Below are positions 8,292-32,000 of a stretch of 32,000 nucleotides of DNA, piece after piece. Numbering within the stretch: position 1 is the stretch's first letter; every line of letters starts with the position of its first letter. Both the position numbers and the translations under genes were made by a program. The stretch is from an uncultured archaeon (GTDB lineage: Archaea; Iainarchaeota; Iainarchaeia; Iainarchaeales; DATDZZ01), in NCBI GenBank assembly GCA_964373795.1, contig CAYJVY010000006.1, positions 30,001 through 62,000 on the forward strand. Reading direction: 5' to 3'. The notes below the pieces were generated by a model. It was given only the letters and a program-made list of their open reading frames with translations, did no database searches and was not told where the DNA came from.

Positions 8292-8330
8292 TTTACATTT
8301 CGCCTAATTCTCTTAATTTTGCATAGCAAT

Positions 8331-14939: not shown

Positions 14940-14983
14940 TTCAACTCCCTAGAGCAGTTCACAAAGTTTTATTTTTGCGCCAA

Positions 14984-15370: not shown

Positions 15371-15609
15371 TATTTGATTGCCCCTGATATTTTGTGTATT
15401 CTTTTACCTATTTTCTGATTGGTTTCTTTTACATGTTTTTGAATTGTTTTTGCTTCTTCGTCTGTTAAAATCCCGGCAAGCTCCAAAAGAGATCTTTGCC
15501 TGGCTATGCGTTTTATAACATCAGTAAAGCTTTCATATTCTTTTTTTTGGGAAGCAAGAATGTCATAGGCGTCTTCCCCAATTGAAATAGTTTTTGTAGC
15601 CATGTACAT
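15370..15609 (-). CDS. vapB: VapB-type antitoxin (DUF217 / PF02697-like)
   Basis: The N-terminus MATKTISIGEDAYDILASQKKEYESFTDVIKRIA matches the KTISI..E.Y..L...K...ESFSDVI signature of archaeal VapB/DUF217 antitoxins. It shares a 1-nt overlap with vapC. The start may be the third codon (ATG at 15603). Confidence 0.75.
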   Translation of the reverse strand: MYMATKTISIGEDAYDILASQKKEYESFTDVIKRIARQRSLLELAGILTDEEAKTIQKHVKETNQKIGKRIHKISGAIK

Positions 15610-15730
15610 GTATATATGTGTATGTAATATAAAAGCATTTTGTATGCCATAACTTAGTTGAATTTTGACACTATGTTTTTTAAGTCCATTTAAATTCCCA
15701 TCATTTTTTTTAAGGCTTGTACTCTTCTTT

Positions 15731-15865
15731 TTAGGGTTTTGATTTTCGTTTTCCAGATTTTTTTGCGCGTGAATTAAATTGTTCTTGTGTTACTCTTAGT
15801 CCTTGAAGAAATATTGCAAAATCTTGATCAGCTCTTATTTTTCTAGAACTGCGTTTTCTAAGCAT
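15731..15865 (-). CDS. Candidate small basic protein (44 aa), possibly translated from a leaderless mRNA
   Basis: Hand-found ORF below the track cutoff: MLRKRSSRKIRADQDFAIFLQGLRVTQEQFNSRAKKSGKRKSKP. There is no SD. A TATA-like ATATATTA box lies about 24-31 nt upstream of the ATG, directly after the stop of the 757-aa surface gene. This spacing is expected for a leaderless transcript. Confidence 0.3.
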   Translation of the reverse strand: MLRKRSSRKIRADQDFAIFLQGLRVTQEQFNSRAKKSGKRKSKP

Positions 15866-15896
15866 TATAAAAAATTAGGAAAAGAAATTAATATAT

Positions 15897-18170
15897 TTAC
15901 CTATTTTTCTTTTTTCTCTTAACAGTGAATAAATAGTATCCTGTAATTAAAAGCAATAAAACTGCTCCTATTCCTAGTGCAGTGTTTTCAATTCCTCCAA
16001 GTCCAAGTAAACCAGTTGGAGGAGTCTTCAATTCAATTGCTACACAGCTTCCATTACTACAAACCTTGTTATCTGCACAAGAAATTCCGTTTACTTCATT
16101 TGAATAACTACAAGTTCCATTAGAAGAATTACAAGAATCAATTGTACAAGGATTATTATCGTTACAGCTTATGCTCTCACATAAGTTAGATGTTTTTGGC
16201 TCTGAAGTAATTGTTTTGGATTTTTCAGGCAAGGTTAAATCAACAACTAAAGGAGCAGCAAATAAATTAAATGCTTCTTGAGTAACTTTTTTCTTTACAG
16301 TGTAACTTAGTTTAACTGTCTCTCCAGCCTTTAATTCTTTTACAATGAATTGAATTACTGGATCAGATTTTAATACAATGAATTCAAAGCTGCTTGAAAG
16401 CTCGTTTGCATCAAATGCAATTTCTTTTGGCACTACTTCAACTACTTTAACATTTTTCAAAATTTCTGTTCCAGGATTTGAAACGCTTACCCCAATAGTT
16501 GAAGCAAAGCTTTCCTTGCTTCCTTGAACAGTTTTTTCTACTTTTAAGTCTCTTGAAAATTCAACTCTATTATTTAATGCTTCTAATGCAACTGAATTTT
16601 TTTCAACATTAATTTCTTCTAAAACTTTTTTAATTGAATCAGGAGTTACTTTAACTTCTTTATTTGTTTCCAATTCAATAGTTGTTTTAGGCTGTAAAGG
16701 AGTTGTAGGACTTCCGCCAGGTGCAGGAGGATTAGTTGTTCCTCCACCACTATTTTGACTAGGAGCAGCATTAACTACTACTGAGACACTTAAATTATTG
16801 TCTGTTTCACTTGATTCATTGAAAGAGTTTTCAGGATCTAATGAAAAAGTATAAGTGTGAGTTGCAACACTTGAAGGAGTAATTGAATAAGTTAAAGTTT
16901 TTTCTTGTCCTGCAGTTAAATCAAGTGATTGACTATTTAAATCAGTTGAACCTTCTTTTAATTTCACTGTAACTCCAATTACAGAGCTTACTTGAGACTT
17001 GAATACAGCAGTTAAAGTTACACTGCTTCCAACAGTAATGCTTGAACTTGAAGCAGTAAAGGAAACTGCATTTAAATCAAAGCTTCCAGGATTGCTTGGT
17101 TGAACAGTAATTAATTGATTTAAATCATTGTTTGTTTCACTGCATTCAGCAATTGCTTTAGAGCCATCTGCTACTACTTTTACTACATGATTTCCTGTTT
17201 TATTCGAAGTATTCCAATCTATTGAAACAGTTACAGAACTATTTGCATCCAAAGAAGAAACAGTATTCTTGTCAATTTGTCCTTGAGAATTCAAGAAATT
17301 AACATCAAAAGGAGTTGAAATATTTGTATCTCCAGTGTTTTGAATAACTGCGGAAATTCTTACAATGTTTCCATCAATTGGATTAGAGTTATTAAAAGTT
17401 AAATCTGAAACCCTTAAATTAGGGCCAACAAAATTAAAGTCCTTGCTTATACTAACGCTTGGCTTTGGAGTTCCATTCAAGTTTTGATAAGTAACAATTG
17501 CTCCAAGAGAAGTGCTTCCACAAGTTAAAGGATTTACATTAAAATGCCTTGAATTAGAAGCATTAGATCCGGCTAATTGAAATCCAGCATAAGCTGAAAC
17601 ATTTGAATCAAATACAGTTGAAGTAGAAGGATTTAATGACACAACTACATGATTTGCATCTTGAGCTCCTTTATTTGTCATTAAAACTCCAAAAGTAAAA
17701 GGCACTCCAAGAGTCTGAGTTCCTGAAACAGAAGGAGAAATTCCTGCATTCAAATCAGCTTCATATTCAACAGTATGATTAATGTCACATAAAGGTAAAA
17801 CACTGTTTACATCAGTTAATTTAAAGTTTACATCAAAAGACGTAGTTGAATTATTCATGTCAAAAGAATAACTTGCAGTTGAATGACTAATTGAAACATT
17901 ATTTGAACTAATTAAGTTCACTCCAGCTGGAACAAAAATATTCAAGTCTTCAAAAGCATTTGCATTGCTTGTTCCAAAATATTTTGGAGGAGGTAATCCA
18001 TCTATATATCCATTTTGATCTGTAACTGAAACAGTGAAAGTTCCATTTGAATAATCAGAGGTAACTTTAAAACTAATATTTGAACAAACAGTTGTAGAAC
18101 TAGTAGCAGCTTGAACGCTGGACAAGAATGCAAGTAATGCAATCAAAACAAAAAACTTTGAATAATTCAC
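15897..18170 (-). CDS. Secreted, C-terminally membrane-anchored surface protein: beta-sandwich/CARDB-like domains, Pro/Gly linker, Cys-rich CTxDxC stalk, TM helix and basic tail
   Basis: The preferred start is the GTG at 18170, preceded by GGTGA with a 4-nt spacer; the track start at 18185 is a TTG. The signal peptide is MNYSKFFVLIALLAFLSSVQAA. CARDB-like endings are CSETNNDLNQLITV and ESSETDNNLSVSVVV. The linker is PSQNSGGGTTNPPAPGGSPTTPLQP. The Cys-rich block CESISCNDNNPCTIDSCNSSNGTCSYSNEVNGISCADNKVCSNGSC resembles the Dictyostelium CTDC repeat. The C-terminus is GIGAVLLLLITGYYLFTVKRKKKNR. N-x-S/T sequons are abundant. Confidence 0.85.
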   Translation of the reverse strand: MNYSKFFVLIALLAFLSSVQAATSSTTVCSNISFKVTSDYSNGTFTVSVTDQNGYIDGLPPPKYFGTSNANAFEDLNIFVPAGVNLISSNNVSISHSTASYSFDMNNSTTSFDVNFKLTDVNSVLPLCDINHTVEYEADLNAGISPSVSGTQTLGVPFTFGVLMTNKGAQDANHVVVSLNPSTSTVFDSNVSAYAGFQLAGSNASNSRHFNVNPLTCGSTSLGAIVTYQNLNGTPKPSVSISKDFNFVGPNLRVSDLTFNNSNPIDGNIVRISAVIQNTGDTNISTPFDVNFLNSQGQIDKNTVSSLDANSSVTVSIDWNTSNKTGNHVVKVVADGSKAIAECSETNNDLNQLITVQPSNPGSFDLNAVSFTASSSSITVGSSVTLTAVFKSQVSSVIGVTVKLKEGSTDLNSQSLDLTAGQEKTLTYSITPSSVATHTYTFSLDPENSFNESSETDNNLSVSVVVNAAPSQNSGGGTTNPPAPGGSPTTPLQPKTTIELETNKEVKVTPDSIKKVLEEINVEKNSVALEALNNRVEFSRDLKVEKTVQGSKESFASTIGVSVSNPGTEILKNVKVVEVVPKEIAFDANELSSSFEFIVLKSDPVIQFIVKELKAGETVKLSYTVKKKVTQEAFNLFAAPLVVDLTLPEKSKTITSEPKTSNLCESISCNDNNPCTIDSCNSSNGTCSYSNEVNGISCADNKVCSNGSCVAIELKTPPTGLLGLGGIENTALGIGAVLLLLITGYYLFTVKRKKKNR

Positions 18171-18174
18171 TTCT

Positions 18175-18179
18175 TCACC
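18175..18179 (-). promoter_or_regulatory. Shine-Dalgarno GGTGA, 4 nt upstream of the GTG start of the 757-aa surface gene
   Basis: The minus strand reads TATGGTGAAGAAGTG. GGTGA is complementary to the conserved archaeal 16S 3' end, and the geometry is identical to that of the giant gene. Confidence 0.55.
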
Positions 18180-18248
18180 ATACAAAATAAATCTTAAATG
18201 TTGTATATATTACTGATTTTTAATATATAAATATTCTTCTTTTAAACA

Positions 18249-21200
18249 TTATGTAACAGTTACAACCCTTGTTACAGTTGCCTGATCTAATGTATTTGCT
18301 CCTGCTTTAACTGTAACTAGATAACTTCCAGGGTTTGGCATATTCATTTGCCAATAATAATCTTCACTTGATAACTTGTTTACATCTAGTGAAGCATTTG
18401 CATTTGCTCCAGCTGATTCTGATGCAACTACATTGAATACTCCGTTTACATCTACTTGGATTGGCAAACTCTTGAAATTCTCTTGGCTTTGAGTAAAGTT
18501 TTCAAACACAGCTATTGTGAAAAAGTTTGCCCCAGCAGTTACACTTGAAGGAGGGTAATTGCTTGAATTAAAGAATCTTGCATTAATTGTGTCTACAACA
18601 CTCCAAACAGTTAAACTATAGTCTTTTGAATTATCTGTAGTACTAGTTTCTCCTGTTACTGGAACTGCATGAACTGTTAAAATAGTTGAACCCTTGTTAT
18701 TTGCATCCCATGAAAACCTCATTGGAAGAGTTTGACCTGCAGCAATCCTCACTACATTGTAATCAAATATAATTGTTCCAGTGGATGGATTGAATGCCTT
18801 TAATTGAACATTTACATCTTCTGAAACATTTCCTGCATTGAATACATTTGCATCAACTGAAATGTCTTGGTTATACAAATAAGTTGTAGTGCTTGCTTTT
18901 CCGTAAACAATTGAATCAACTCTTACATCATGTGTTGCTTGAACAGTTACATTTTTTGTTTTATTATTATCACTTAAATTTACTTCTCCTGTTACAGAGT
19001 CAACTGAAACCTTTAATTCAAATACTCCTTCACTTGTTGGAGTGAAATTAAATGAATAAATTGCAATTTGTCCTGGAGCAAGATTAGTTAAAGTAACTGT
19101 TTCTTGTAATACTCCATTCACAAAAAAGCGAACATTACTTGACTCTAAAACATTTCCAATATTTGATATATTTGCATCAACTACTGTAGTTGAATTAATT
19201 GCTACTGTTCCAGGAGCGGAAAGAGAATCTGTTCTCAAATCATGACTTGCAATGCTTACAACATTAAATGAAAAAGATTTCACTGCTTGAGTTCCAAGTT
19301 TATCTGAAACAAATACATTTACATCATGGCTTCCAACACTTAAATTACTTAAAGAAGTAAAAGTTACTTTATTTGCTGAAACATTTGCATTAGCAGTTAC
19401 GTTATTGCCGTCCAAAAATAATTGCACTGAATTCAAGTCAACTCCGCTTAAAGCATCGTTAAAGTCAGCAGAAATTGTTGGAGTTTGATCTGAAGTATTT
19501 TGATCTTGTCCTGGAATTAAATTAGTTATTGTTGGAGCATTACTATCAAAAAACACTGTATCTAATACACTTGAACTAGTGTTTCCTACTGCATCAACAA
19601 ATTTAACGTACACTCCAACTAATCCATTAATTCCATTACATCCAAACGCAGTGTCCATTATATTAAAGTCTGAGTAAGTTGTAGCGAATGCAATGTTGCT
19701 TGTGTATGCAATGTCATTACAAGAAAATTTCATGAATTGAACAGATGTTGTAGCATCGCTTGCAGTTAATGCAAGTGAAGGTTTTTGATTTTTAGTGAAA
19801 GTATTTCCATCTGCAACTACAATTGAAGTTCCTGTTGGAGCAGTTTTATCAACTCTTACATTTAATGTTGTATTTGATTGATTGTTATCTGCAAAGTCAA
19901 CTGGCTTTACTCTAAATAAATGATTTCCATCACTTAAAGTATTTGAAACAACAAAGCTCCAATTAGTTGAACCATTCGCGTCTGTAAAAGAGTTTCCATC
20001 AACATTTAATTGAACTTTTCTTATTCCTGTTTCATTGTCAACAGCTGTTCCACTTAAAGTTAGTGGGAAGTCTGAAGCATTTAAGTCAACATTATTTGTT
20101 GGAGAAGTAAATGATGCACTTGGATTATTTAAATCAACATGAATTGTTATAATAGATGAATTTAATCCATTTAAATCTAAATTATCTTGAGCTTTTACTA
20201 CTAAATTATAATCTGCCTGAGTTAGTGCACTTAAAGTGAAACTCCAGGAAGTAGTTCCATTAGCGTCTTGGAAGCTTGTTCCGTTATCTGTTGAAACAAA
20301 TACTTTTTGTACTCCGCTTCCAGTTCCATCTGAAGCAGTTCCTGAAACAGTTAATGGGAAAGAATTATTTCCAGCATTAAAGTCTGAAACAGGGGAAGTA
20401 ATTAAAGCAGTTGGTTGAGTTGAATCAAATGAAACTGAGTCTGAAACCGCAGTTGAAGAATTTCCAATTACATCTTCAAATCCTGCGTAAACTGTTTTCA
20501 ATCCATCTCCACTAGTACATCCAAATGCTGGATCTAACATATTGAAATCAGAGTAACTTGTAGCAAAAGGAATATTTGAAGTGAAAGTTATATTATCACA
20601 ACTGAAACGCATGAATGCAACTCCTGTTCCACTTCCGTCTGAGGCATTTAAAGTTAAAACAGGTTTTTGCGCATTAGTGAATCCTAAAAGATTTGCAATT
20701 GAAATACCTGTATCAGTTGGAGGAGTTTTATCAACAGTTAAAGTAATTGAAGCAGGAGTTAAATCATTATTGTCTGCATAATCTCTTGCTTTTGCTTTCA
20801 AAGTATAATTTCCATCAACTAAAGTTGGAACATTAAAAGTCCAAGAACTTAAATCATTTGCGTCTGCAAAAGTCAAACCATTATCTAGGCTTACAAATAC
20901 TTTTGTTAAACCTGTTCCAACATCTGAAGCTGTTCCAGTAATTGTTAAAGGAAATTGAGCTGCATTTAAGTCTCCTGAAGGGAAAGTAATTACAGTATTT
21001 GGATCAACTAAATCTACATGTAATAATTGAGTTGTTAAACTTACTTGGTTTTGATCTAAATTGTCTTGAGCTTTTGAAATAATATTATAATCTCCTGAAG
21101 TTAGAGATGCAATTGAAAAACTCCAGTTAGTTGAACCATTTGCGTCTGCAAATGTTGCACCATTATCTAAGCTTATGAATACTTTTTTCACTCCTGCACC

Positions 21201-24200
21201 TGAATCAAAAGAGGTTCCTGAAACAGTTAATGGAAATGCATTTAATCCTGCATTGAAATCATTTACAGGACTTGAAACACTTGAAGTAGGAGGAGTTGTG
21301 TCAAAGAAAATTGAATCCAAAACTGAAGCAGATTCATTTCCAACTGCATCAGTGAATTTAACATAAATTCCAGTTAAACCATTTAATCCACTGCAACCAA
21401 ATGCAGGATCTATCATGTTGAAGTCTGAGTAAGTTGTTGCAAAAGCAATGTTGTTTGTGTATGCAATATCATTACAAGAAAATTTCATGAATTGAACAGA
21501 TGTTGTAGCATCGCTTGCTGTTAAAGTTAGATCTGGTTTTTGATCGTTTGAAAAATTATCTCCATTTTGAATTACAATTGAAGCTCCAATTGGAGGAGTG
21601 GAATCAACTATAATGTTTACGTCAGTGAAACTTGTTTGATTATTGTCAGCGAAATCGTTTGCTTTTGATTTCAAGGTATGAACTCCATCTGTTAAAGGAG
21701 TTGAAATTACAAAGCTCCAAGCATTAGAGCCATTTGCGTCTGTAAAACTTGTTCCACCATTAGTTGAAAGGAATACTTTTCTTACCCCAGTAAATGCATC
21801 GCTTGCAGTTCCGGAAATTGTTATTGGAAATTCATTTGCATTAAAATCTGATCCATTTAACGGGCTTGTAATTGTGCTTGAAGGAACAACTGTGTCAATG
21901 TGTAATACTAAAGGACCAATTGAAGGAGAATTTTGATCTAAGTTATCTACTACTCTAATGAATATATTATAGTTTCCATCTACTGGGCTTCCAAGGTTTC
22001 TAGTCCAATTAGTTGTTCCAGTTGCCAAGTTAGGAAAAGTTAATCCTCCATTAGTTGAAACAAATACTTGTTTTACTCCACTTCCTGCATCGCTTGCAGT
22101 TCCAGTTAAAGTTAAAGGCAATGCATTTGCTCCTGCATTAAAGTCTTGAACAGGTGAAACAAATGCTCCAGTTGGAGCAGTAGTGTCAAAGAATATTCCA
22201 TCTGAAACAGCTGTTGAAACATTATTCAAATCATCTGCAAATCTTGCAAAAATTGTTTTATTTCCATCTACAGAATTACATCCAAATGTTGAGTCAAGCA
22301 TATTAAAGTCTGAATATGAAGAAGCAAATGAAACATATGAAGTGAAACTTACATTATCACAAGAGAATTGCATGGATGCAACATTTGTTAATGCATCAGT
22401 TGATGCAAGAGTTAATGAAGGCTTTTGAACATTAGTAAAGTTTGCTCCGGATGCAATTGAAATTAAATTATTTATTGGAGGAGTGGAATCAAATAAAAAG
22501 TTCACATCAGTCGAAACTGATTGATTATTGTCTGCAAAGTCTTGAGCTTTAACTTTAATTGAGTAATTGCCGTCTGGAAGAGAGGGAATTGAAAAACTCC
22601 AAGAATTTGTTCCAGTTGCTTCAGTGAAAGAAATTCCTCCATTAGTTGAAACCAAAACCTTTTTCACTCCAACATTATTATCTGAAGCAGTTCCAGTTAA
22701 AGTAAAAGGCATGTTTGCATCTGAAAGCCTTGCATTATTGGCTAGATTTGAAATCACTGAATTAGGAGGAGTTAAATCAACATGCAATAAAACAGTTGAA
22801 ACACTGGATTGATTTTGATCCAAGTTATCCATTGCTTTTACTTGAACTAAATAATCTCCTGCAGTTAAACTTGATTTTGAAAAACTCCAGGAAGTAGTTC
22901 CATTTGCGTCTTGGAATGAAGCTCCTGAATCAAATGAAAGCCATACAGTTTTCACTCCGCTTCCAGTTCCATCGCTTGCAGTTCCACTTAAAGTTAATGG
23001 GAAAGAATTATTTCCAGCATTAAAGTCTGAAACAGGACTTGAAACATTTGAAGTAGGAGGAGTTGTATCGTAATTAACTACTTTACTAATTTGAGTTGAA
23101 GAATTTCCTGTAAAGTCTTCAAATACAACGAATACTGTTTTGTTTCCATTTCCTCCAATGCAACCATTTACTGGATCTAAAATATTGAAATCAGAATGAC
23201 TTGAAGCAAATGCAACATTTGCAGGGTAATTCAAGTTATCACAAGAAAATCTCATGAATTTTACTCCTGTAACAGCATCTAGAGCAGCTAATGAAAGTAA
23301 TGGTTTGGATAAATTAGTGTATCCAACTCCGTTTGCAATATTCATGTCAGCATTAGTTGGAGGCAAATTATCTACTCTGAAATTCAAATCCGCAGTTAAA
23401 GAATTATTGTCTGCAAAGTCTTGAGCTTTAACTTTTACTTGATACAATCCATCTGCAGGCAAAGAAATAGATTTACTCCAAGAAGTTGTGCCAGTTGCAA
23501 GAGTAAAAGTTAAACCATTGTCAGTTGAAAGCCATGCCTGTTTCACTCCAGTTCCAAACCCATCTAAAGAAGTTCCATTAACATTTAATGGGAACGCACT
23601 TGAAGTATAATTTGAATCATTTGAAGGAGAAGAAATTGCAATAGTTGGAATGGTTTTGTCTACGTGAATTAAAATTCTTTGAGGAACCTCATTTTGATCT
23701 AAATTGTCTTGACCTTTAACTAATACATTGTAATCTCCATCTGATAAATCTGAAATTATAAAGCTCCAAACACTTGTACCAGTTGCTTCAGCAAATGTTA
23801 CTCCATTATTTGTTGAAACAAATACTTTTTTCACTCCACTTCCAGTTGAATCAGCTGAAATTCCGGAAACAGTTAAAGGGAATTTACTTGCATTAAAATT
23901 TGAATCATCTGCTGGACTTAAGATAACTGAACTAGGGGCAGTTGAATCAAAGAAAATTGCATCTTGAAATGCATTTGATTCATTTCCAGCAGTATCACTA
24001 AATTTAACATAAACTGTTTTGTTTCCATCACTTGAAGTGCAACCAAATGCTGAGTCAAGCAAATTGAAGTCTGAGTAAGTTGTAGCGAATGCAATGTTGC
24101 TTGTGTAAGCAATATCATTACAAGAAAATTTCATGAATTGAACAGAGGTAGTAACATCTAAAGCTGTTAAAGTTAGTGAAGGTTTTTGTGCATTAGTAAA

Positions 24201-27200
24201 GTTTGCTCCAGATGCAATTAATATTGTTCCAGTTGGAGCAACTGAATCAACTACTACATTAATATCTGTTAAAACGCTTTGATTGTTGTCTGCAAAGTCA
24301 TTTGATTTTACTGAGATTGAATAATTTCCATCTATTGGTTGAGTAAATACATTATTCCAGTTACTTGTTCCAGAAGCCAATTCAAAGTTATTACTTGAAC
24401 CAAATCTAATCCAAACTTTTTGCACTCCAGTATTGTTATCTGAAGCAGTTCCAGTAACAGTTAAAGGAAAATTACTTGCCTTAAGTTCAGCTCCATTTAA
24501 AGGAGAAACAATTACTGAACTTGGATTAGTTAAATCAACATGTAATAGTTGTGGAATAGTTGTTGAACCATTTAAATCTAAATTATCTTGAGCTTTTACT
24601 ACAAGAGTATAGTCTCCTTGAGTTAAAGACGTTAAAGTATAAGTCCAATTAGTTGTCCCTGTAGCTAAGTCAAATGAATTTCCATTGTTTGTTGAAACCC
24701 AAACTTTTTGCACTCCTGATCCAGTTCCATCGCTTGCAGTTCCGGAAACAGTTAATGGAAAGGAATTATTTCCTGCATTAAAATCACTTATTGGATTAAC
24801 TAAAACAGCATTAGCTCCAGTTGAATCAAAGAAAATTGTTTCACTTGCAATTGCATTATTATCTACAAGATCTTCAAATGCAACGAAAACAGTTCTATTT
24901 CCATCTATAGTTGAACAACCAAATAATGGATCAACTATATTGAAATCAGAATGAGTTGAATTAAATGCAATGCGTGAAGTAAATGGACCGCTTGCAGAGC
25001 AACTGAATTTCATGAATTGCACTCCTGTTGTTGCATCACTTGCATTCAAAGACAAAGAAGGTTTTTGTTTATTTGTATACAAAGCATTACTTTCAATATT
25101 TACATCAGCATTAGTCGGAGAAGTTGAATCAACTCTTACATTAATTGAAGTTAAAGATAATTGATTATTGTCAGCTGCATCTTGAGCTTTAATAATTAAA
25201 TTATGATTTCCATCAGTTAAAGGATTGGAAACAATAAAATTCCAAGAAGTAGTTCCAGTTGCTAAATTAAATGAAACTCCTTCATCTAATGAATACCAAA
25301 TCTTTGAAACCCCTGAATTATTGTCAGCAGCTGTTCCGGAAACAGTTAAAGGAAAATTTCTTGCATTCAAATCAGCATTATTTAATGGACTTGAAATTAT
25401 TGAAGTTGGACGAGTTTTATCTACTTGGAATACGCCTCCTAAAAATTCAACAAAATTATTATCCAAGTTATCTATTACTTTAACATATAAATCATGAGTT
25501 CCTTCACTTAAATCAAATACTAAAAAATTCCAATCATTTGCTGTAACTTGATTTCCATCAACAAAGTTTCCTGAATCTAATTTAAATTGAACTTTATTTA
25601 ATCCTGATCCTGAATCACTTGAATTAATTGGATAATTAAATGGGAATGCATTCAATCCATATCCTCCTGGAGGGGTTGCGCCAACTGCATTAATTTGAGG
25701 AGCAGTTGAGTCAAAGAAAATATTTTTACTTACAGTTGAAGAAAAACCAACATAGTCAGTAAATTTTGCATAAACAGTTCTATTTCCATCAGCAGTAGTA
25801 CAACCGGTTGCAGGATCTAAGATATTGAAATCCGAATGAGTAGTTGCATAAGCAACATTTGAAGAATAATTTACATTGTTGCAAGAAAACTGCATGAAGT
25901 TAATTCCTGTAACAGAGTCTTCAGCTCTCAAACTCAAAGCAGGTTTTTGTTTTCTAGTAAAGTTTGCTCCTCCTTCAATGTTTAAATCCAAATTTGTTGG
26001 AGCAATGAAATCTAACCTGTAATTCACATCAGTTGTTATAGATTGATTATTGTCAGCGAAATCTTGAGCTTTAACTTTTAAAGTATAAAATCCTTCTTGC
26101 AATGCATCTGGATTAAAAGTATAACTCCAATTAGTTGAACCATTTGCATCTCTGAAAGTAACTCCACTGTCAAGTGAAACAAATACTTTTTTTACTCCAA
26201 CATTATTGTCAGCAGCAGTTCCACTAAAAGTAATTAAACTAAATTGATTAAAATTTGCGTCGCTTACTGGAACAGTAACAGTACTAGTTGGAGGAGTTAA
26301 ATCAACATGAACAACTGTAAAAGTATTGTCAGCTGTGTTTGCTAAATTATCTGTTAATCTAAGAATTACTGCATGATCTCCTGCAGTAATAGAGTTGAAA
26401 ATAAATGAAACAATTGGAACACTTATATTATTTGCATCAACAAAAGTTAAACCATTATCTAAACTCAATTGAGCTCTTAAAAGACCAGATCCATTATTTG
26501 GATCACTTGCATCAAATGCAAATGTGTAAGGGAAAGAATTTACTCCAATGTTTGCGTCAACGTTTGAAGCTGAAATTCCTGCAGTAGGAGCTGTTGAATC
26601 ATAAAACACTTCATCTGAAACAGCAGTTGATTCGTTTCCCACTTCATCTAAAAATTTCACGAAAACAGATTTATTTCCATCACTTGAATTACATCCAAAA
26701 GCTGAATCTAATAAATTAAAATCTGAGTAAGTTGTTGCAAAAGCAATGTTGTTTGTGTATGCAATGTCATTACAAGAAAATTTCATGAATTGAACAGATG
26801 TTGTAGCATCGCTTGCAGTTAATGCAAGTGAAGGTTTTTGATTTTTAGTGAAAGCATTTCCATCTGCTACAACAATTGATCCAGTTGGAGCAATAGTGTC
26901 AAAAACAAAGTTTACATCAGTTAAAACTAATTGATCGTTGTCAGCGAAATCTATTCCAGTTACTTTTAAATTATTTAATCCTTCAATTGGAGTCAAACTT
27001 GGAATACTCCAAGAAGTTGTTCCAGAAGCATTTTGGAATTGCGCTCCATTTAAAGAATATAAAACCTTTTTTGCCCCAGTAAACGCATCTGAAGAAGTTC
27101 CTGAAACAGTGCTTGCGAAAAAACTTGTAGAACTATATTTTGCATTATTTGTTGGAAAAGAAATTGTGCTTGAAGGCCTTGTTAAATCAACTGTAATTCT

Positions 27201-30200
27201 TCTAGAACTTGGTTGAGAGTTTTGATCTAAATTATCTGTAACCTTTGCTTGAATTTCTTTTGCTCCCTCAGTTAAAGAATTAATTACATAATTCCAATCT
27301 CCTGTTCCTGAAGCTAAATTAAATGTTAATCCATTGTTGTCTGAAACCCATACTTGTTTTACTCCACTTCCTGCATCGCTTGCAGTTCCAGTTAAAGTAA
27401 ATGGAAAGAAACTAATTCCTGCATTATAATCTTCCGGAGGGAATAAACTTATTCCAGGCAACCCTGGAGTTGAGTCAAAGAAAATTCCATCTGAAACAGC
27501 TGTAGAAATATTTCCTAAGTCATCAGTGAATTTCACGAAAACTGTTTTATTTCCATCAGAGGAAGTGCAACCAACTGTTGAATCCAATATATTAAAATCC
27601 GAATGACTTGATGCAAACGCTACATTTGAAGTAAAGCTAGTTCCATTACAGCTAAACTGCATTTGAGTAACAGTTCCAAGTGCATCACTTGAAGCAAGAG
27701 TTAATGAAGGCTTTTGAGCATTAGTGAAATTTGCTCCTCCAGAAATTGAAATTGAATTATTTGTCGGAGGAGTTGTATCTACTATGAAATTTCTGTCAAC
27801 AACTATTGCATTGTTGTCAGCGAAATCTGAAGCCAAAACTCTTACATTATGGGATCCATCTGCAGGCAAAGAAATTGTTTTACTCCAAGAAGTTGTGCCA
27901 GTTACAAGAGTAAATGCTGCATTGTCAAGACTTACATATACTTCTTTTACTCCAGTGAATGCATCTGAAGTTGCACCAGTTAAAGTAAAAGGAAAATTAC
28001 CTGCATTTAATTTAGTTGTTCCAGCCAAAGCCAAATTAATTGATCCAGGTTCTGGAGCAGTTGGAAGAGTTAAATCAACTTTTACTGTTAATTTTTTATT
28101 ACTTAAAGGGGTTTCGACTTGCCCTAAATTGTCTGTTGCTTTTGAAACAAAAATATAAGTTCCTTCAGTTAGAGAATTAATTACTGTATTCCAATTATTT
28201 GTTCCAGTAACATTTGAAAAAGTTGCTTCATTATTTGTTGAGAGTTGAACTAACTGTACTCCGGCTCCTGCGCCATCGCTTGCAGTTCCAGAAACACTTA
28301 AAGGAAATTTGCTTGCATTCAAATTTGAATCATTTGTTAAAGAAATACTTGAAGTAGGAGAAGTTAAATCCAAAGTAAAAGAATCGCTTACAGCTGTTGA
28401 AGAATTTTGCAATTCGTCTTCAAATATTGCGAAAATTGTTTTCAATCCATCAACTGAATTACAACCAAATTGATTTGAACTCAAATCAAGTTGACTTGAA
28501 GTTGTTGTGAATGAAAAATTTGAAGTATAAGGCCCTGTTTGAGAACAACTAAATCTCATAAATGCAACGCTTGTAGTTGTATCGCTTGAACTCAAAGTAA
28601 GAGTAGGAGTTACGTCGTTTGAAAACCCATTTGTTTTAGAAATTGAAACTGAATTACTTGCAGGAGCAGTAGTGTCTAAGGTTAGAGTTAAATTTGTTGT
28701 AACAGTTTGTTCATTGAATGCATTATCTAATGCTTTTACAACTAAATTAATTGCTCCATCAGTAAAAGAAGAACCAAAACTAATGCTCCAATTAGATCCA
28801 TTTAAAGTTGTTTCTTGAAATGTTATTCCACCATCTTTTGAAGCAAATACTTTTTTCACTCCACTCAAAGAATCGCTTGCAGTTCCTGAAACAATTAATG
28901 GAAGATTACTTGAATTAATTTTTTGCCCATTAGAATGAGAAGTAATAGTTGAAGTAGGTTTAGTTGCATCAAAAGTAATTGCATCTGAAACACTTGAAGA
29001 AGTGTTTCCTAAATCATCTAAGAATTTTACGAAAACGTTTTTAGTTCCTTCAGTTGAATTACATCCAGTTGCTCCATTTGTTAAATTAAATTGAGAGTAA
29101 GTTGTTGCAAAGTTTACTGCAGGAGAAAAATTTGTTCCATCACAAGAAAACTGCATTTGAGTAACAGTTCCTAAAGCATCTTGAGATGCAAGAGTTAATT
29201 TTGGATTTGAAGAATTTGAAAATTGATTTCCATCCGCTATTACAATAGAATTATTTGTCGGAGGAGTAGTGTCTACTTGAATTGTTATTCCTGCAGAAGG
29301 AGTTTCAAGATTTCCAGTTCCATCAGTTGCACGAGTTTGAATTAAGTGATTTCCATTACTTAAAGCACTTGAAGGAGTAAAACTCCAACTAGTTGTACCA
29401 GTTGCTTGAGTAAAACTTCCTCCATCAATTGAAACTTCCACTTTTGTTATTCCACTAAATAAATCTGAAGCTGTTCCAGTAAAAGTTGGACTTGTATTGC
29501 TTGTTCTTTGTCCATTTGAATGAGAAGAAATACTTGAAGTTGGAGCAGTTATATCGTAAACAATTGAATCCAAAATTGAAGCTGAAACATTTCCAACTCC
29601 ATCCTTTAATTGCAAGTAAACGTTTTTTGTTCCTTCACTTAAAGTACAACCTAGAGCAGAATCGAGTAAATTAAATCCATTAACTAAAGGAGCTAATGCA
29701 GTGAAAGTTGAAAAAGTTGAATCATTGCATGAAAATCTCATTAAAGATGTTCCAACAATATTGTCTGAAGCAGTTACAGCTAAACTCACTAATCCGTTTG
29801 CAGTAAAAGCATTTCCATTATTAATTGCAAGAGTTCCAGTTGGAGCAGTTGAATCAATTGTTACAGTTACATTTGCATCCGAAACATTTCCAGCATTATC
29901 TGTTGCATTTACGCTGTATCTAAAGCTACCATTTTTTCCTGTAATGCTGCGAGGCTCAACAATTAAATCAGTTAAAGTTAAAGAAGAATAATTTTTTGAA
30001 TTTCCTTGAGTTGTAAGTGGAGTTACATTTAGCTTTGTTTCCCCATAAGTTGTTTGATTTAATCCGCTTACATTATCAGTTAAATTAAATTTTAAAGCAA
30101 AATTTGCAGAATTATCAGGGCCATAACTTACTCCATTAACTGGTTCAGTTATTGAAATTGTTGGAGGAGTTACATCAAAAATAATTTGATCTGAAACAGT

Positions 30201-30821
30201 TAAAGGATTGTTACTTAAATCAAATCCTTTTACATAAACAGTTCTAATTCCTTCAGTTGAATTACATCCTGCTCCTGATTCATTTGATAAATTAAATGAC
30301 TTGCTTGAAGTGAATGCTTGCTGTGAAGTGAAGTTCACATTGTCACAACTGAATTGAAGAGAATTAATATTGTTTCCATCAACTGTTAAAGTAACTTGAG
30401 CATTGTTGGAATAAGTTGCTGCATTATTAATTGAAGCACTTAAACTTCCAACCGCTGGAGGAGCAGTGTCTAAAAGAATTGCACTTGTTTGAGTTCCCAA
30501 ATCAAAAGTGCTTCCGTTTGAAGCAATTCCAATTCCTGTTACTCCAACAACTTTTAATCCATCTCCACCAATTAAATTCCATGAATGAGTATAAGTTCCA
30601 GCAGGCTTTGTAAAGCTTTGTTGCTGGCTTTGACCATCAAATACTGTGTAAACATGTGAAATTCCTCCTGAAACAGAAACAGTTACATTTATTGCAGGAT
30701 TATTAGTTGTAGTTGAACCATTATTTAATGAAACACTTAAAGCAGCGAAAGCTATAGAAGAAACTATAAGTAATCCAATTAATACGTAGAGATATCTAAA
30801 GGTTGAACTAAATGATCCCAC
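18249..30821 (-). CDS. Giant (4,190 aa) secreted repeat protein: signal peptide, 14 two-cysteine domains interleaved with 23 Ig-like domains, one distinct Ig-like domain, CARDB-like domains; no C-terminal anchor
   Basis: Uninterrupted 12,573-nt ORF with a GTG start preceded by GGTGA-N4. The N-terminal hydrophobic segment is LYVLIGLLIVSSIAFAALS. The repeat unit is [D-T-x-P-T ... FTN.QKPSLTL.ASD....V.FM.FSC.......N.AF...YSDFN.LD..FGC.S.DGNKTV.VKF.D..GN.S] followed by Ig-like domains carrying SGTASD..SGV.KV.VS..NG.TF motifs. The tail has CARDB-like segments (NISNIGNV...VDSVTGEVNLSDNN) and ends ...ATVTRVVTVT without a TM segment. Confidence 0.9.
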   Translation of the reverse strand: MGSFSSTFRYLYVLIGLLIVSSIAFAALSVSLNNGSTTTNNPAINVTVSVSGGISHVYTVFDGQSQQQSFTKPAGTYTHSWNLIGGDGLKVVGVTGIGIASNGSTFDLGTQTSAILLDTAPPAVGSLSASINNAATYSNNAQVTLTVDGNNINSLQFSCDNVNFTSQQAFTSSKSFNLSNESGAGCNSTEGIRTVYVKGFDLSNNPLTVSDQIIFDVTPPTISITEPVNGVSYGPDNSANFALKFNLTDNVSGLNQTTYGETKLNVTPLTTQGNSKNYSSLTLTDLIVEPRSITGKNGSFRYSVNATDNAGNVSDANVTVTIDSTAPTGTLAINNGNAFTANGLVSLAVTASDNIVGTSLMRFSCNDSTFSTFTALAPLVNGFNLLDSALGCTLSEGTKNVYLQLKDGVGNVSASILDSIVYDITAPTSSISSHSNGQRTSNTSPTFTGTASDLFSGITKVEVSIDGGSFTQATGTTSWSFTPSSALSNGNHLIQTRATDGTGNLETPSAGITIQVDTTPPTNNSIVIADGNQFSNSSNPKLTLASQDALGTVTQMQFSCDGTNFSPAVNFATTYSQFNLTNGATGCNSTEGTKNVFVKFLDDLGNTSSSVSDAITFDATKPTSTITSHSNGQKINSSNLPLIVSGTASDSLSGVKKVFASKDGGITFQETTLNGSNWSISFGSSFTDGAINLVVKALDNAFNEQTVTTNLTLTLDTTAPASNSVSISKTNGFSNDVTPTLTLSSSDTTTSVAFMRFSCSQTGPYTSNFSFTTTSSQLDLSSNQFGCNSVDGLKTIFAIFEDELQNSSTAVSDSFTLDLTSPTSSISLTNDSNLNASKFPLSVSGTASDGAGAGVQLVQLSTNNEATFSNVTGTNNWNTVINSLTEGTYIFVSKATDNLGQVETPLSNKKLTVKVDLTLPTAPEPGSINLALAGTTKLNAGNFPFTLTGATSDAFTGVKEVYVSLDNAAFTLVTGTTSWSKTISLPADGSHNVRVLASDFADNNAIVVDRNFIVDTTPPTNNSISISGGANFTNAQKPSLTLASSDALGTVTQMQFSCNGTSFTSNVAFASSHSDFNILDSTVGCTSSDGNKTVFVKFTDDLGNISTAVSDGIFFDSTPGLPGISLFPPEDYNAGISFFPFTLTGTASDAGSGVKQVWVSDNNGLTFNLASGTGDWNYVINSLTEGAKEIQAKVTDNLDQNSQPSSRRITVDLTRPSSTISFPTNNAKYSSTSFFASTVSGTSSDAFTGAKKVLYSLNGAQFQNASGTTSWSIPSLTPIEGLNNLKVTGIDFADNDQLVLTDVNFVFDTIAPTGSIVVADGNAFTKNQKPSLALTASDATTSVQFMKFSCNDIAYTNNIAFATTYSDFNLLDSAFGCNSSDGNKSVFVKFLDEVGNESTAVSDEVFYDSTAPTAGISASNVDANIGVNSFPYTFAFDASDPNNGSGLLRAQLSLDNGLTFVDANNISVPIVSFIFNSITAGDHAVILRLTDNLANTADNTFTVVHVDLTPPTSTVTVPVSDANFNQFSLITFSGTAADNNVGVKKVFVSLDSGVTFRDANGSTNWSYTFNPDALQEGFYTLKVKAQDFADNNQSITTDVNYRLDFIAPTNLDLNIEGGANFTRKQKPALSLRAEDSVTGINFMQFSCNNVNYSSNVAYATTHSDFNILDPATGCTTADGNRTVYAKFTDYVGFSSTVSKNIFFDSTAPQINAVGATPPGGYGLNAFPFNYPINSSDSGSGLNKVQFKLDSGNFVDGNQVTANDWNFLVFDLSEGTHDLYVKVIDNLDNNFVEFLGGVFQVDKTRPTSIISSPLNNADLNARNFPLTVSGTAADNNSGVSKIWYSLDEGVSFNLATGTTSWNFIVSNPLTDGNHNLIIKAQDAADNNQLSLTSINVRVDSTSPTNADVNIESNALYTNKQKPSLSLNASDATTGVQFMKFSCSASGPFTSRIAFNSTHSDFNIVDPLFGCSTIDGNRTVFVAFEDLVDNNAIASETIFFDSTGANAVLVNPISDFNAGNNSFPLTVSGTASDGTGSGVQKVWVSTNNGNSFDLATGTTNWTYTLTSLTQGDYTLVVKAQDNLDLNGSTTIPQLLHVDLTNPSSVIVSPLNGAELKASNFPLTVTGTASDNNTGVQKVWIRFGSSNNFELASGTSNWNNVFTQPIDGNYSISVKSNDFADNNQSVLTDINVVVDSVAPTGTILIASGANFTNAQKPSLTLTALDVTTSVQFMKFSCNDIAYTSNIAFATTYSDFNLLDSAFGCTSSDGNKTVYVKFSDTAGNESNAFQDAIFFDSTAPSSVILSPADDSNFNASKFPLTVSGISADSTGSGVKKVFVSTNNGVTFAEATGTSVWSFIISDLSDGDYNVLVKGQDNLDQNEVPQRILIHVDKTIPTIAISSPSNDSNYTSSAFPLNVNGTSLDGFGTGVKQAWLSTDNGLTFTLATGTTSWSKSISLPADGLYQVKVKAQDFADNNSLTADLNFRVDNLPPTNADMNIANGVGYTNLSKPLLSLAALDAVTGVKFMRFSCDNLNYPANVAFASSHSDFNILDPVNGCIGGNGNKTVFVVFEDFTGNSSTQISKVVNYDTTPPTSNVSSPVSDFNAGNNSFPLTLSGTASDGTGSGVKTVWLSFDSGASFQDANGTTSWSFSKSSLTAGDYLVQVKAMDNLDQNQSSVSTVLLHVDLTPPNSVISNLANNARLSDANMPFTLTGTASDNNVGVKKVLVSTNGGISFTEATGTNSWSFSIPSLPDGNYSIKVKAQDFADNNQSVSTDVNFLFDSTPPINNLISIASGANFTNVQKPSLTLASTDALTNVASMQFSCDNVSFTSYVSFASSYSDFNMLDSTFGCNSVDGNKTIFARFADDLNNVSTAVSDGIFFDTTAPTGAFVSPVQDFNAGANALPLTLTGTASDAGSGVKQVFVSTNGGLTFPNLATGTTNWTRNLGSPVDGNYNIFIRVVDNLDQNSPSIGPLVLHIDTVVPSSTITSPLNGSDFNANEFPITISGTASDAFTGVRKVFLSTNGGTSFTDANGSNAWSFVISTPLTDGVHTLKSKANDFADNNQTSFTDVNIIVDSTPPIGASIVIQNGDNFSNDQKPDLTLTASDATTSVQFMKFSCNDIAYTNNIAFATTYSDFNMIDPAFGCSGLNGLTGIYVKFTDAVGNESASVLDSIFFDTTPPTSSVSSPVNDFNAGLNAFPLTVSGTSFDSGAGVKKVFISLDNGATFADANGSTNWSFSIASLTSGDYNIISKAQDNLDQNQVSLTTQLLHVDLVDPNTVITFPSGDLNAAQFPLTITGTASDVGTGLTKVFVSLDNGLTFADANDLSSWTFNVPTLVDGNYTLKAKARDYADNNDLTPASITLTVDKTPPTDTGISIANLLGFTNAQKPVLTLNASDGSGTGVAFMRFSCDNITFTSNIPFATSYSDFNMLDPAFGCTSGDGLKTVYAGFEDVIGNSSTAVSDSVSFDSTQPTALITSPVSDFNAGNNSFPLTVSGTASDGTGSGVQKVFVSTDNGTSFQDANGTTSWSFTLSALTQADYNLVVKAQDNLDLNGLNSSIITIHVDLNNPSASFTSPTNNVDLNASDFPLTLSGTAVDNETGIRKVQLNVDGNSFTDANGSTNWSFVVSNTLSDGNHLFRVKPVDFADNNQSNTTLNVRVDKTAPTGTSIVVADGNTFTKNQKPSLALTASDATTSVQFMKFSCNDIAYTSNIAFATTYSDFNIMDTAFGCNGINGLVGVYVKFVDAVGNTSSSVLDTVFFDSNAPTITNLIPGQDQNTSDQTPTISADFNDALSGVDLNSVQLFLDGNNVTANANVSANKVTFTSLSNLSVGSHDVNVFVSDKLGTQAVKSFSFNVVSIASHDLRTDSLSAPGTVAINSTTVVDANISNIGNVLESSNVRFFVNGVLQETVTLTNLAPGQIAIYSFNFTPTSEGVFELKVSVDSVTGEVNLSDNNKTKNVTVQATHDVRVDSIVYGKASTTTYLYNQDISVDANVFNAGNVSEDVNVQLKAFNPSTGTIIFDYNVVRIAAGQTLPMRFSWDANNKGSTILTVHAVPVTGETSTTDNSKDYSLTVWSVVDTINARFFNSSNYPPSSVTAGANFFTIAVFENFTQSQENFKSLPIQVDVNGVFNVVASESAGANANASLDVNKLSSEDYYWQMNMPNPGSYLVTVKAGANTLDQATVTRVVTVT
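19540..30470 (-). repeat. Intragenic tandem super-repeat region of the giant gene: 3 short units (~200 aa), 10 long units (~292-299 aa, ~880 nt), and a terminal 14th two-Cys domain
   Basis: The FSC motifs fall at residues about 157, 363, 558, 757, 1056 and 1348, then about every 292-294 aa up to 3699. The anchor codon of FMKF in four near-identical copies sits at nt 19733, 21488, 24134 and 26786. These spacings of 1755, 2646 and 2652 nt correspond to 2, 3 and 3 units. Boundaries are approximate, within about 30 nt. Confidence 0.85.
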
Positions 30822-30825
30822 GACT

Positions 30826-30830
30826 TCACC
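30826..30830 (-). promoter_or_regulatory. Shine-Dalgarno GGTGA, 4 nt upstream of the GTG start of the giant gene
   Basis: The minus strand reads TTTTTGGTGAAGTCGTGGGATCA, giving GGTGA-N4-GTG. Confidence 0.55.
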
Positions 30831-31010: not shown

Positions 31011-32000
31011 TTATTTTCTTGTTTTTGCTAGAAATCCTTGTTGTTCTCGAGTCATTCCAGTCCTTTGAGGTGAAAGTTTTCGTGCCTGGCCTGCAACTGC
31101 ATTGAATAAACTTCCTACATCAACGTTAACGCTTCCTTGCCAAGCATTTCTATCAGCCATTTCAAATTCAGCTGTAAAATTTACTCCATTGCCTGTAGTC
31201 CACCAACCTCTTAACCCTCCACCAAATTCTTTTCCAAAAGTTAATTCTCTTCTTCCAAGTTTATCAAAAGTTAAAAATGCTTCAATTCCTCTACCTCTTT
31301 CAAGATTTTCTAAACCAATTCCTCCAACAGTTCTTAAAGTATCAGCTGCTTCTTGAATTGATTGATAATCTAATTGCAATCTATAAGAAATATTCCATCT
31401 ATTTCCTGAAGGAGTAAGTTGTGCTCCAGCTTTTTCTAATTCAATTTTTTGATCTGGAGTTAAAGTTTTTCCTTCAACTCTAATTGATCCATCTCTTCCA
31501 ATTGGAATTCTTCCAACAAGTAATCCTCTTAGAGAATGAGATCTTAAAATTGGATCGTCTTGAAATGCATGTTGTAAAGATAAATCAACTTTTCCACCTA
31601 AAGCTCTTCTTAAATCAATTCCTGTTACAACTCTTCTACCACTTTCTTTTGTTCCTTCTAGAGGGCCATGAACTACTTCTGTTTTAGTCCAACCAGGACC
31701 TAAAGCTAAATCAATTCTTCTTCCAAATAAATCAAATTCATGTCCAAACATTAAATCAAATGTTTCCCTTCTTCTAACATCTCTTAACCTTGTTTTAACA
31801 TCAATTGGACCAAAAGGAATTGGAGGTTGTGCAACTCCGCCAATTTCAGTTTGAACTTGTCCTGAAACAGCTTTATTAGTAGTTGTTTCACTTGATTCAT
31901 GTTCTCTTAAATATCTTCCACCTAATTTAATATCTGGCAAGTCAAGTGGAAATCTATGAATTACATCACTTCCAGTTGTTTTATCTCTTCTAAGAAATTC
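31011..32000 (-). CDS. Hypothetical Arg/Gly-rich, beta-strand-rich protein (partial; N-terminus outside the window)
   Basis: The track start at 31940 is a TTG, but the frame stays open to nt 32000 (hand translation EFLRRDKTTGSDVIHRFPLDLPDIKLGG...), so the gene is truncated by the window. Alternating hydrophobic/polar strands (FDLMFGHEFDLFGRRIDLALGPGW, VDLSLQHAF, WNISYRLQLDY, IEAFLTFDKLG, VNFTAEFEMA, WQGSVNVDVGSLF) are separated by G/R/D-rich turns. It is visibly more G+C-rich than its neighbours. Confidence 0.7.
   Translation of the reverse strand, partial: EFLRRDKTTGSDVIHRFPLDLPDIKLGGRYLREHESSETTTNKAVSGQVQTEIGGVAQPPIPFGPIDVKTRLRDVRRRETFDLMFGHEFDLFGRRIDLALGPGWTKTEVVHGPLEGTKESGRRVVTGIDLRRALGGKVDLSLQHAFQDDPILRSHSLRGLLVGRIPIGRDGSIRVEGKTLTPDQKIELEKAGAQLTPSGNRWNISYRLQLDYQSIQEAADTLRTVGGIGLENLERGRGIEAFLTFDKLGRRELTFGKEFGGGLRGWWTTGNGVNFTAEFEMADRNAWQGSVNVDVGSLFNAVAGQARKLSPQRTGMTREQQGFLAKTRK

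Follow-up and report, generated by a model that had tools for sequence, protein, structure and literature searches.

A giant immunoglobulin-repeat protein of an uncultured archaeon and a conserved membrane-anchored partner that may hold it at the cell surface

Gene content of the locus

The largest gene in a 32,000-nucleotide (nt) stretch of DNA from an uncultured archaeon (contig CAYJVY010000006.1, positions 30,001 to 62,000; hereafter the window, meaning the whole stretch that was analysed) encodes a protein of 4,190 amino acids (aa), which we call the giant. Directly downstream on the same strand lies the gene for a 757-aa protein with a predicted transmembrane (TM) anchor, here its partner (Table 1). 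The open reading frame (ORF) of the giant is intact, its product is a chain of immunoglobulin (Ig)-like beta-sandwich domains, its host is an archaeon, and the two genes recur side by side in a second archaeal genome. This conserved pair is, from the sequences compared, what is new here, and it bears on how a protein without an anchor of its own is held at a cell: the product of the next gene probably provides, in trans, the anchor that it lacks.

The giant ORF covers 39% of the window with no stop codon inside it, as a sequence-only reading of the window had described, and its start codon is identical to that of the copy held in a public protein collection (P0006). A GGTGA-N4-GTG arrangement is common to the giant and partner genes. 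The residue composition (S 12.6, T 11.6, N 10.3, V 8.4, A 7.8 and D 7.3%) agrees with the S/T/N/D/V-heavy protein of that reading, and the mature protein has a computed mass of ~437 kDa and pI of 4.2. The gene does not stand out as a horizontally acquired island, its GC content (0.31-0.35) being close to that of the remaining window (mostly 0.28-0.33). Among the super-repeats described below, the median ratio of nonsynonymous to synonymous substitution rates (dN/dS) was 0.57 (dS 0.87), which indicates moderate constraint only and does not discriminate among the explanations considered here.

The archaeal origin of the window, already suggested from its letters, was borne out by a full-length archaeal signal recognition particle (SRP) RNA and by aMBF1 (125 bits against a cut-off of 110); FtsZ is also present, and the GC content of the window is 32%. 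Cluster look-ups of ten window proteins returned no named members, so that the placement of the window stays at the level of archaeon.

Table 1. Coordinates of the giant gene, its domains, its partner, the homologous locus L003 and the other features of the window. Positions are those of the window unless L003 is named.
Feature	Position	Strand	Remarks
Giant gene	18249..30821	-	4,190 codons plus stop; GTG start; 12,573 nt
GGTGA Shine-Dalgarno-like element	30826..30830	-	4 nt 5' of the giant's GTG; read from sequence
Putative signal peptide, residues 1-27	30741..30821	-	R9, hydrophobic (h-) region YLYVLIGLLIVSSIAF, A-F-A/A cleavage-type site; hydropathy and sequence reading
N0, first beta-sandwich domain, residues 28-117	30471..30740	-	Weak Big_7 match
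A1-X1, A2-X2 and A3-X3 two-domain units, residues 118-715	28677..30470	-	
Ten A-B-C super-repeats, residues 716-3657	19851..28676	-	Period ~293 aa; DNLDQN and DFADNN motifs conserved in B/C
A14, final two-Cys domain, residues 3658-3758	19548..19850	-	
T1, Ig-like, residues 3759-3854	19260..19547	-	Sub-threshold Big_13 and Big_5; opens the conserved C-terminal module
T2 and T3, two CARDB domains, residues 3855-4084	18570..19259	-	AlphaFold2 (AF2) block pLDDT mostly 80-94
T4, 106-aa C-terminal beta domain, residues 4085-4190	18252..18569	-	No family above threshold; candidate docking domain
Longest exact repeat, copy 1, in A14	19700..19801	.	102 nt
Longest exact repeat, copy 2, in A6	26753..26854	.	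102 nt
Partner gene, 757 aa	15897..18170	-	GTG start at 18170 (version on record), not TTG at 18185; 78 nt downstream of the giant
Best-scoring partner CARDB, residues 255-355	17106..17408	-	
Partner C-terminus	15900..16022	-	PPTGLLGLG motif, TM helix (ALGIGAVLLLLITGYYLFTV), KRKKKNR tail; motif and layout shared with the L003 partner
P0009	L003 1697-11278	+	CAZILS010000001.1, 'uncultured archaeon isolate SRP141376_co4_238', 387,661-bp contig
L003 partner C-terminus	L003 ~13122-13313	+	PPxTGLxGLG, TM helix, basic tail
VapB antitoxin (PF02697)	15370-15609	-	62 bits; just downstream of the partner gene
PIN-domain toxin (PF01850)	14984-15370	-	46.5 bits; 1-nt overlap with VapB; VapBC pair
Gene upstream of the giant	31011-32000	-	At least 329 aa; Gly/Arg/Leu-rich; runs off the window end; not syntenic in L003
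Predicted secreted protein/lipoprotein	12003-13184	+	Internal lipobox-like FISGC after a hydrophobic stretch; weak PsbP_2
Archaeal SRP RNA (RF01857)	4558-4833	+	136 bits, full length
ORF without Pfam/NCBIfam family above threshold	8331-9650	-	
ORF without Pfam/NCBIfam family above threshold	5645-6808	+	
ORF without Pfam/NCBIfam family above threshold	7437-8291	+	
ORF without Pfam/NCBIfam family above threshold	13305-14048	+	

Export and architecture of the giant

The sole hydrophobic segment of the giant spans residues ~10-28 (Kyte-Doolittle mean 2.4) and is followed by A-F-A/A, in keeping with the N-terminal signal-like segment reported before; from this site we infer that the signal is cleaved. 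A class III (pilin-type) signal was rejected, there being no [KR]-[GA] ahead of the h-region. Over the last 45 residues the Kyte-Doolittle maximum is 0.43, which supports the earlier statement that no hydrophobic C-terminal segment is present, and scans of the giant for PGF, PEF and LPXTG motifs and for hydrophobicity at its C-terminus were negative. An archaeosortase or sortase substrate (PGF-CTERM, PEF-CTERM, LPXTG or PEP-CTERM) was likewise rejected, as neither the giant nor the partner has a tripartite C-terminal signal above model cut-off. The description of the giant as having no membrane anchor holds for the protein itself, but it overlooks the next gene, which encodes a conserved membrane-anchored partner.

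Segmentation from D-x-T-x-P linkers, together with all-against-all segment comparison, gave the architecture SP-N0-(A-X)x3-(A-B-C)x10-A-T1-CARDB-CARDB-T4, where SP is the signal peptide. It comprises 42 beta-sandwich domains of ~95-120 aa each, close to the ~40 estimated from the letters. The unit described at that stage, a two-Cys domain plus two alternating Ig-like types, fits the ten A-B-C core units but not the first three units, which have two domains each; of their second domains, X2 and X3 are C-like, and X1 is divergent and has the top density of N-x-S/T sequons (8.4 per 100 aa). B and C are themselves related, with best cross-type identities of ~45-56%. The giant has 28 cysteines, forming 14 pairs with a spacing of 27-28 residues. 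Its end had been described as CARDB-like: two CARDB domains are indeed present, but T4 comes last, after them.

Domain families and predicted fold

In Pfam, the whole giant matched Big_7 (PF17957) at 378.8 bits (cut-off 24.1) in 16 stretches and Big_13 (PF19077) at 278.1 bits (cut-off 27) in 10 stretches, and its C-terminal 450 aa matched CARDB (PF07705) at 41.2 bits (cut-off 22.7) in 2. Taken alone, a B domain passes Big_7 at 26.3 bits, a C domain reaches 22.5, just under cut-off, and an A domain scores 16-21 bits for Big_13, under the cut-off of 27. The common form of the A domain is '...INGGAxYTNSxxVTLxLSAxD..SGVxxMxFSNDGxxWSxWExY...GDGxKTVYVxFxDxAGNxS', and its canonical relatives without the cysteines pass Big_7 at 24.7-34.6 bits. 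Judged by these scores, A is a divergent Cys-bearing variant of a widespread bacterial Ig domain. The repeat unit had been left unassigned to any named, characterised adhesin family; per-domain hidden Markov model (HMM) searches do place its domains, with B and C belonging to Big_7/Big_13 and the two-Cys A being a variant of the same widespread Ig domain. All repeat types of the giant fall, on profile evidence, within or beside Big_7, Big_13 and CARDB, and its building blocks are ordinary. These three are fold-level families without a defined function.

An exhaustive search with an A-B-C profile returned 32,706 proteins at E <= 0.001, of which 2,361 reached E <= 1e-30; many of the proteins run to thousands of residues. 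Among them are an Ig-like domain protein of 6,027 aa from Pseudomonas protegens, a PKD-domain protein of Thermoplasmatales and, from a Candidatus Diapherotrites metagenome-assembled genome (MAG), a 'LamG-like' protein of 6,710 aa. The giant itself scored 4,771 bits and the next best protein 1,249 bits; by this measure there is no close orthologue of the giant among the profile matches. A word-index search with one super-repeat gave only 4 weak non-self matches, and a PDB sequence search gave no useful match. The OmpL47 multi-beta-barrel surface protein (NCBIfam NF047441) was rejected as a family for the giant, the score being 233.6 bits summed across repeats against an equivalog cut-off of 250.

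Cys pairs and T4 domains were counted in the best 150 of the 32,706 profile matches. Five other proteins in this set (P0007, P0009, P0011, P0113 and P0149) carry the two-Cys A domain, and in each of them every copy has both cysteines (in descending order of copy number, 21/21, 18/18, 17/17, 5/5 and 3/3). Pairing in every copy is consistent with a disulfide, which we infer to form in the A domain. Among the carriers, P0007 comes from a Candidatus Diapherotrites (DPANN) MAG, and the cluster of P0113 is named Candidatus Gracilibacteria, of the candidate phyla radiation (CPR). In this small sample of five proteins, the distribution gives a hint of either a connection with ultra-small host-dependent lineages or transfer between domains of life.

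One A-B-C unit was modelled with AF2 on an alignment of the ten paralogous units; the model had a predicted local distance difference test score (pLDDT) of 87.7 and contained three all-beta domains. Its best Foldseek match in the PDB was BIg50-52 of SiiE (2yn5/2yn3, E = 4e-11); further matches were 6xi3, a tetra-tandem repeat from the extending region of a large adhesion protein, MpIBP RII (4p99, 5irb) and the GhpA grappling hook of Aureispira (9flw and related entries). TM-scores were modest (0.4-0.5), as expected for flexible multi-domain queries. An attachment role, proposed in the sequence-only reading, appears reasonable given the likeness of the predicted fold to giant-adhesin extender regions. 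The giant also has 12 copies of the motif D-x-A-[GD]-N and resembles SiiE in acidity (pI 4.2 against 4.24) and in the motif itself, which in SiiE has the form D-x-A-G-N, is conserved and links Ca2+ sites that rigidify the rod (PMC6272769). By analogy, the giant may be rigid, possibly through Ca2+ at its conserved Asp/Asn motifs.

For the C-terminal module, AF2 was confident for the two CARDB domains only, and Foldseek returned only generic macroglobulin/Ig arrays of low TM-score. T4 showed weak, sub-threshold similarity to C-terminal models of the type IX secretion system (T9SS), namely PF18962 (Por_Secre_tail; 16.7 against 27 bits) and TIGR04183 (12.6 against 23). A T9SS C-terminal sorting domain was rejected, both models being under cut-off and the host archaeal; since archaea lack a T9SS, the T4 match is probably just a shared small beta-sandwich shape.

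A conserved partner gene

The partner has a Sec signal, CARDB domains and a linker rich in Gly and Pro; its N-terminal region is unassigned, its DUF11-like and Cys-rich matches are weak, and it ends in a TM helix and a basic tail. Only one of the best 150 profile matches also has T4. This protein, P0009 (3,193 aa), is encoded at a locus of another archaeal contig (L003; Table 1) and aligns with the giant over the whole T1-CARDB-CARDB-T4 module, collinearly and with 36% identity over ~430 aa. It carries C domains and 17 A domains of the two-Cys kind behind a Sec-type signal, and two Golvesin_C domains (PF25275; residues ~108-240 and ~443-570, 86 and 95 bits) lie among its N-proximal Ig domains; the window giant has no Golvesin_C.

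The next gene in L003 overlaps the P0009 stop by 11 nt and encodes 682 aa that are 30% identical to the window partner over 495 aa (E = 2e-62). Both partners share the signal peptide, the unassigned N-terminal region, CARDB, the Gly/Pro-rich linker, a Cys-rich membrane-proximal region, the motif PPxTGLxGLG, the TM helix and the basic tail. L003 has a GC content of 52% against 32% in the window, its neighbouring genes are archaeal housekeeping genes for a wyosine-formation radical-SAM enzyme and a geranylgeranyl reductase, and a synteny comparison with the window found no other window gene there. That just this pair is conserved in two genomes so unlike each other speaks for a functional connection.

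Beyond L003, a scan of genome contigs (species representatives) returned only the P0009 locus and not the genome of the window. A metagenome scan with the C-terminal module returned nothing, and one with the partner alignment matched only a high-GC contig (L004), through an irrelevant Cys-rich stretch. Word-index searches gave 1 weak non-self match for the C-terminal module and 2 for the partner.

The PPxTGLxGLG motif, TM helix and basic tail together are tripartite, like sortase and archaeosortase signals, and no NCBIfam sorting model reaches cut-off for the partner (LPXTG_anchor, 10.3 against 15.9 bits; GG_III-CTERM, 10.2 against 22). The motif is absent from the rest of the window, L003 and L004, and does not occur within 60 residues of the C-terminus of the other retrieved proteins. 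This tail may be an unrecognised sorting signal, for which two sequences speak.

Proposed arrangement at the cell surface and alternatives to it

We propose that the giant is exported through Sec and would fold into a rod of 42 tandem beta-sandwich domains, constituting a cell-surface fibre. Ig-domain fibres extend by 3.3-4.5 nm per domain, and at this rate the fibre would be ~140-190 nm long. T1, the two CARDB domains and T4 would dock non-covalently onto the ectodomain of the partner, which would serve as a membrane socket; the conserved C-terminal module would form the proximal base, and the variable N-terminal end would face outward as the distal tip. The occurrence of Golvesin_C in the N-terminal part of P0009 only fits a variable distal tip and a conserved base. 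Through its many Ig domains the fibre would bind another cell or a surface in a multivalent, adhesin-like manner, and it would possibly be stiffened by Ca2+ and stapled by disulfides. We give this arrangement as a whole about an even chance of being right, docking on the partner, the orientation and the adhesive role of the giant being its conditional steps.

Several findings weigh against it. T4 was modelled at low confidence (block pLDDT ~44-65), and Pfam scans recognised no ligand-binding tip domain in the giant. The CARDB domains of the giant and of the partner have no significant sequence similarity, and homotypic CARDB pairing between the two proteins, dissimilar as these domains are, is ruled out as a sequence-based suggestion. 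The gene pair is known from two genomes only, and two metagenome scans and the word-index searches gave no further pairs. Co-transcription is not certain, as the 78-nt gap between the two genes holds an AT-rich, TATA-like stretch. Lastly, the N-terminal hydrophobic stretch of the giant, at ~17-19 residues, is sufficient for an uncleaved signal anchor.

This last point underlies the foremost of the alternatives, which we nevertheless consider unlikely: the segment would stay uncleaved and tether the giant as a type II protein, CARDB and T4 would form a distal ligand-binding tip, and the 757-aa neighbour would be independent or a co-receptor at the tip. The length of the stretch and its hydropathy (Kyte-Doolittle mean 2.4) are enough for a membrane span, and RTX adhesins carry their ligand-binding modules at the C-terminal end (see PMC5550230). 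CARDB is moreover cell-adhesion-related by name and is treated as an adhesion module in the DPANN archaeon Mia14 (PMC5498576). Small-x-small sites, however, stand right after the h-region in both the giant (A-F-A) and P0009 (A-H-A), and the h-region of P0009 has only ~15 residues, which is typical of a cleaved Sec signal. The distribution of conserved parts also speaks against a distal C-terminal tip: it is the C-terminal end that is conserved and co-occurs with the partner and the N-terminal end that varies, whereas ligand-binding tips are usually variable.

Next, and likewise improbable, is that the giant is a released matrix, sheath or S-layer-type component, shed or layered together with the partner, and not a directional adhesin. 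The gene order mirrors that of SlaA/SlaB, a large anchorless beta-sandwich protein followed by a smaller one with a C-terminal TM anchor; the sequon density is similar, with 2.9 per 100 aa in the giant and 31 sequons in the 1,424 aa of SlaA (PMC10903991); and the lack of a recognisable ligand-binding domain would suit a structural component. A linear string of 42 Ig domains, on the other hand, matches fibre and stalk structures and not lattice formers, and at 4,190 aa the monomer would be an expensive lattice subunit. No S-layer family is among the Pfam and NCBIfam matches of the giant and the window proteins scanned, and a helix-rich or coiled-coil stalk is missing from the partner.

Beyond the docked fibre that we favour, a bolder version can be formulated, to which we give little credence. 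Here the pair would be an undescribed two-component attachment organelle, made of a ~150-nm disulfide-stapled Ig fibre, a T1-CARDB-CARDB-T4 plug and a socket with a novel PPxTGLxGLG-TM signal, with which ultra-small host-dependent archaea would grasp partner cells; its two-Cys Ig domain would have been exchanged between DPANN (Diapherotrites) and CPR (Gracilibacteria).

Assembly and repeat number

The super-repeats of the giant are well diverged, most pairs being 41-58% identical in protein and 60-80% in DNA. Only 13 exact internal repeats of at least 25 nt were found, of which several measure 41-50 nt and the longest, shared by A14 and A6, 102 nt. Tandem Repeats Finder (TRF), with a longest period of 500, detected no long-period array. 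The domains A6, A9, A12 and A14 are 65-77% identical in protein, against ~50% for most other pairs; exact identity over 102 nt amid repeats that are 60-80% identical, together with the high identity of these four domains, suggests recent gene conversion between non-adjacent units. The gene was rejected as the target of a diversity-generating retroelement: the Pfam and NCBIfam matches of the scanned ORFs include no reverse-transcriptase family, and the 102-nt repeat is exact, not A-mutated.

Run ERR3478686 has been assembled independently in Logan, and this assembly agrees with window positions 14488-19695 at 100% identity, which confirms the 3' 1.4 kb of the giant gene, its stop codon and the neighbouring gene; over 7603-10902 the identity is 99.97%. 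The Logan contig stops 5 nt short of the 102-nt repeat, and the copy number from A6 to A14 rests on the window's own assembly. The other resolution of this repeat would be a short gene plus a closed 7-kb circle, which would leave the full-length path as the sole linear solution that uses each unique segment once. It is very improbable that a real gene has been given a wrong repeat number, and with it the length of 4,190 aa, through repeats mis-resolved in a short-read metagenome assembly: the 102-nt and 41-50-nt exact repeats and the break of the Logan contig would allow it, but the divergence of the units, the scarcity of exact repeats, the single linear path, a frame unbroken across 12.5 kb and the existence of relatives of 3,193 and 6,710 aa all speak against it.

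Comparison with known systems

Giant RTX adhesins of the type I secretion system (T1SS), such as SiiE of Salmonella, MpIBP of Marinomonas and LapA-like proteins, share with the giant their large size, acidity and dozens of tandem Ig domains that act as a stalk. They differ in export and retention: the giant has an N-terminal Sec signal and not a C-terminal T1SS signal, its archaeal host has no outer membrane, and it lacks an N-terminal retention module, anchoring being proposed to occur through a separate TM protein. Assignment to this class was rejected, as the giant, although it has the tandem BIg extender domains, has no GGxGxDxUx nonapeptides, carries a Sec-type signal at its N-terminus and comes from an archaeon.

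In organisation, the closest likeness is to SlaA and SlaB of Sulfolobales. SlaA has 1,424 aa, no anchor and 31 sequons, and SlaB has 475 aa, beta-sandwich domains and a C-terminal TM anchor (PMC10903991). In both cases an anchorless, Sec-exported, sequon-rich beta-sandwich protein stands beside a C-terminally TM-anchored partner, a resemblance that is architectural only. The giant is ~3 times longer than SlaA, and its Ig domains form a linear string where SlaA is a compact lattice subunit of six domains; in place of the trimeric coiled-coil stalk of the SlaB type, the partner has a Cys-rich membrane-proximal region.

Among archaeal proteins, the SPEARE proteins of nanohaloarchaea (SVXNc_0300 and BNXNv_0298) resemble the giant in their Sec signal, long ectodomain of Ig-like or fibronectin-like domains and proposed interaction with a host; they are membrane-anchored, contain a VirB4/TraG-like ATPase domain and have a VirB4-like ATPase gene downstream (PMC10266531). 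A SPEARE-type assignment was rejected, as Pfam and NCBIfam find no ATPase family in the giant, which has no TM segment beyond the signal, and the downstream gene encodes a CARDB surface protein. The giant belongs to none of the characterised families with which it was compared; it is stalk-like in its working and SlaA/SlaB-like in its organisation.

Proteins of this size had been called rare in small-genome archaea, which is overstated: giant surface proteins of 8,880-9,409 aa are described from DPANN archaea (PMC10266531), and CARDB/PKD surface proteins occupy ~2.5% of one DPANN genome (PMC5498576), so that size alone is not very surprising. With generic domains, and with giant Ig-repeat surface proteins known in bacteria and DPANN, the locus adds a further member and a plausible variant of anchoring, not a new principle. 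Attachment of uncultivated small archaea is poorly understood, and a fibre with a socket, if true, would provide a concrete, testable gene pair and would carry the SlaA/SlaB principle of anchoring in trans over from S-layers to giant fibres. The C-terminal module could be used as a search handle for related systems.

Sequons and glycosylation

The giant contains 120 N-x-S/T sequons, against 99.8 +/- 8.3 in composition-preserving shuffles (z = 2.4, 1.2-fold), whereas the control motif [ST]-x-N is not in excess over shuffles. Its density of 2.9 per 100 aa compares with 2.6 and 2.8 in two further predicted secreted proteins of the window and with at most 1.2 in the non-secreted ones. The abundance of sequons in the giant is mostly a consequence of its high N, S and T content. 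Twenty of the 120 sequons sit in two structural motifs, D-x-x-G-N-x-S and DGNKT, and related forms (DNAGNxS and DGTKTVY) occur in the aligned A-like domains of other proteins; as some of these relatives are bacterial, sequon positions in the motifs need not mean glycosylation. No glycosylation gene was found in the 32,000-nt window. Of the sequon-rich surface glycoprotein envisaged earlier, the sequons are there, but an excess of only 1.2-fold over composition does not indicate glycosylation, which is plausible for an archaeal surface protein.

Other genes in the window

A VapBC toxin-antitoxin pair follows the partner gene (Table 1). On the other side of the giant, the gene that runs off the window end has no Pfam or NCBIfam match. 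The predicted secreted protein or lipoprotein encoded at 12003-13184 has 2.8 sequons per 100 aa, much as the giant and the partner do; its lipobox-like FISGC is internal, so translation probably begins downstream of the TTG that is listed. Among the four ORFs without a family above threshold, one of 439 aa recurs exactly in run ERR3478686.

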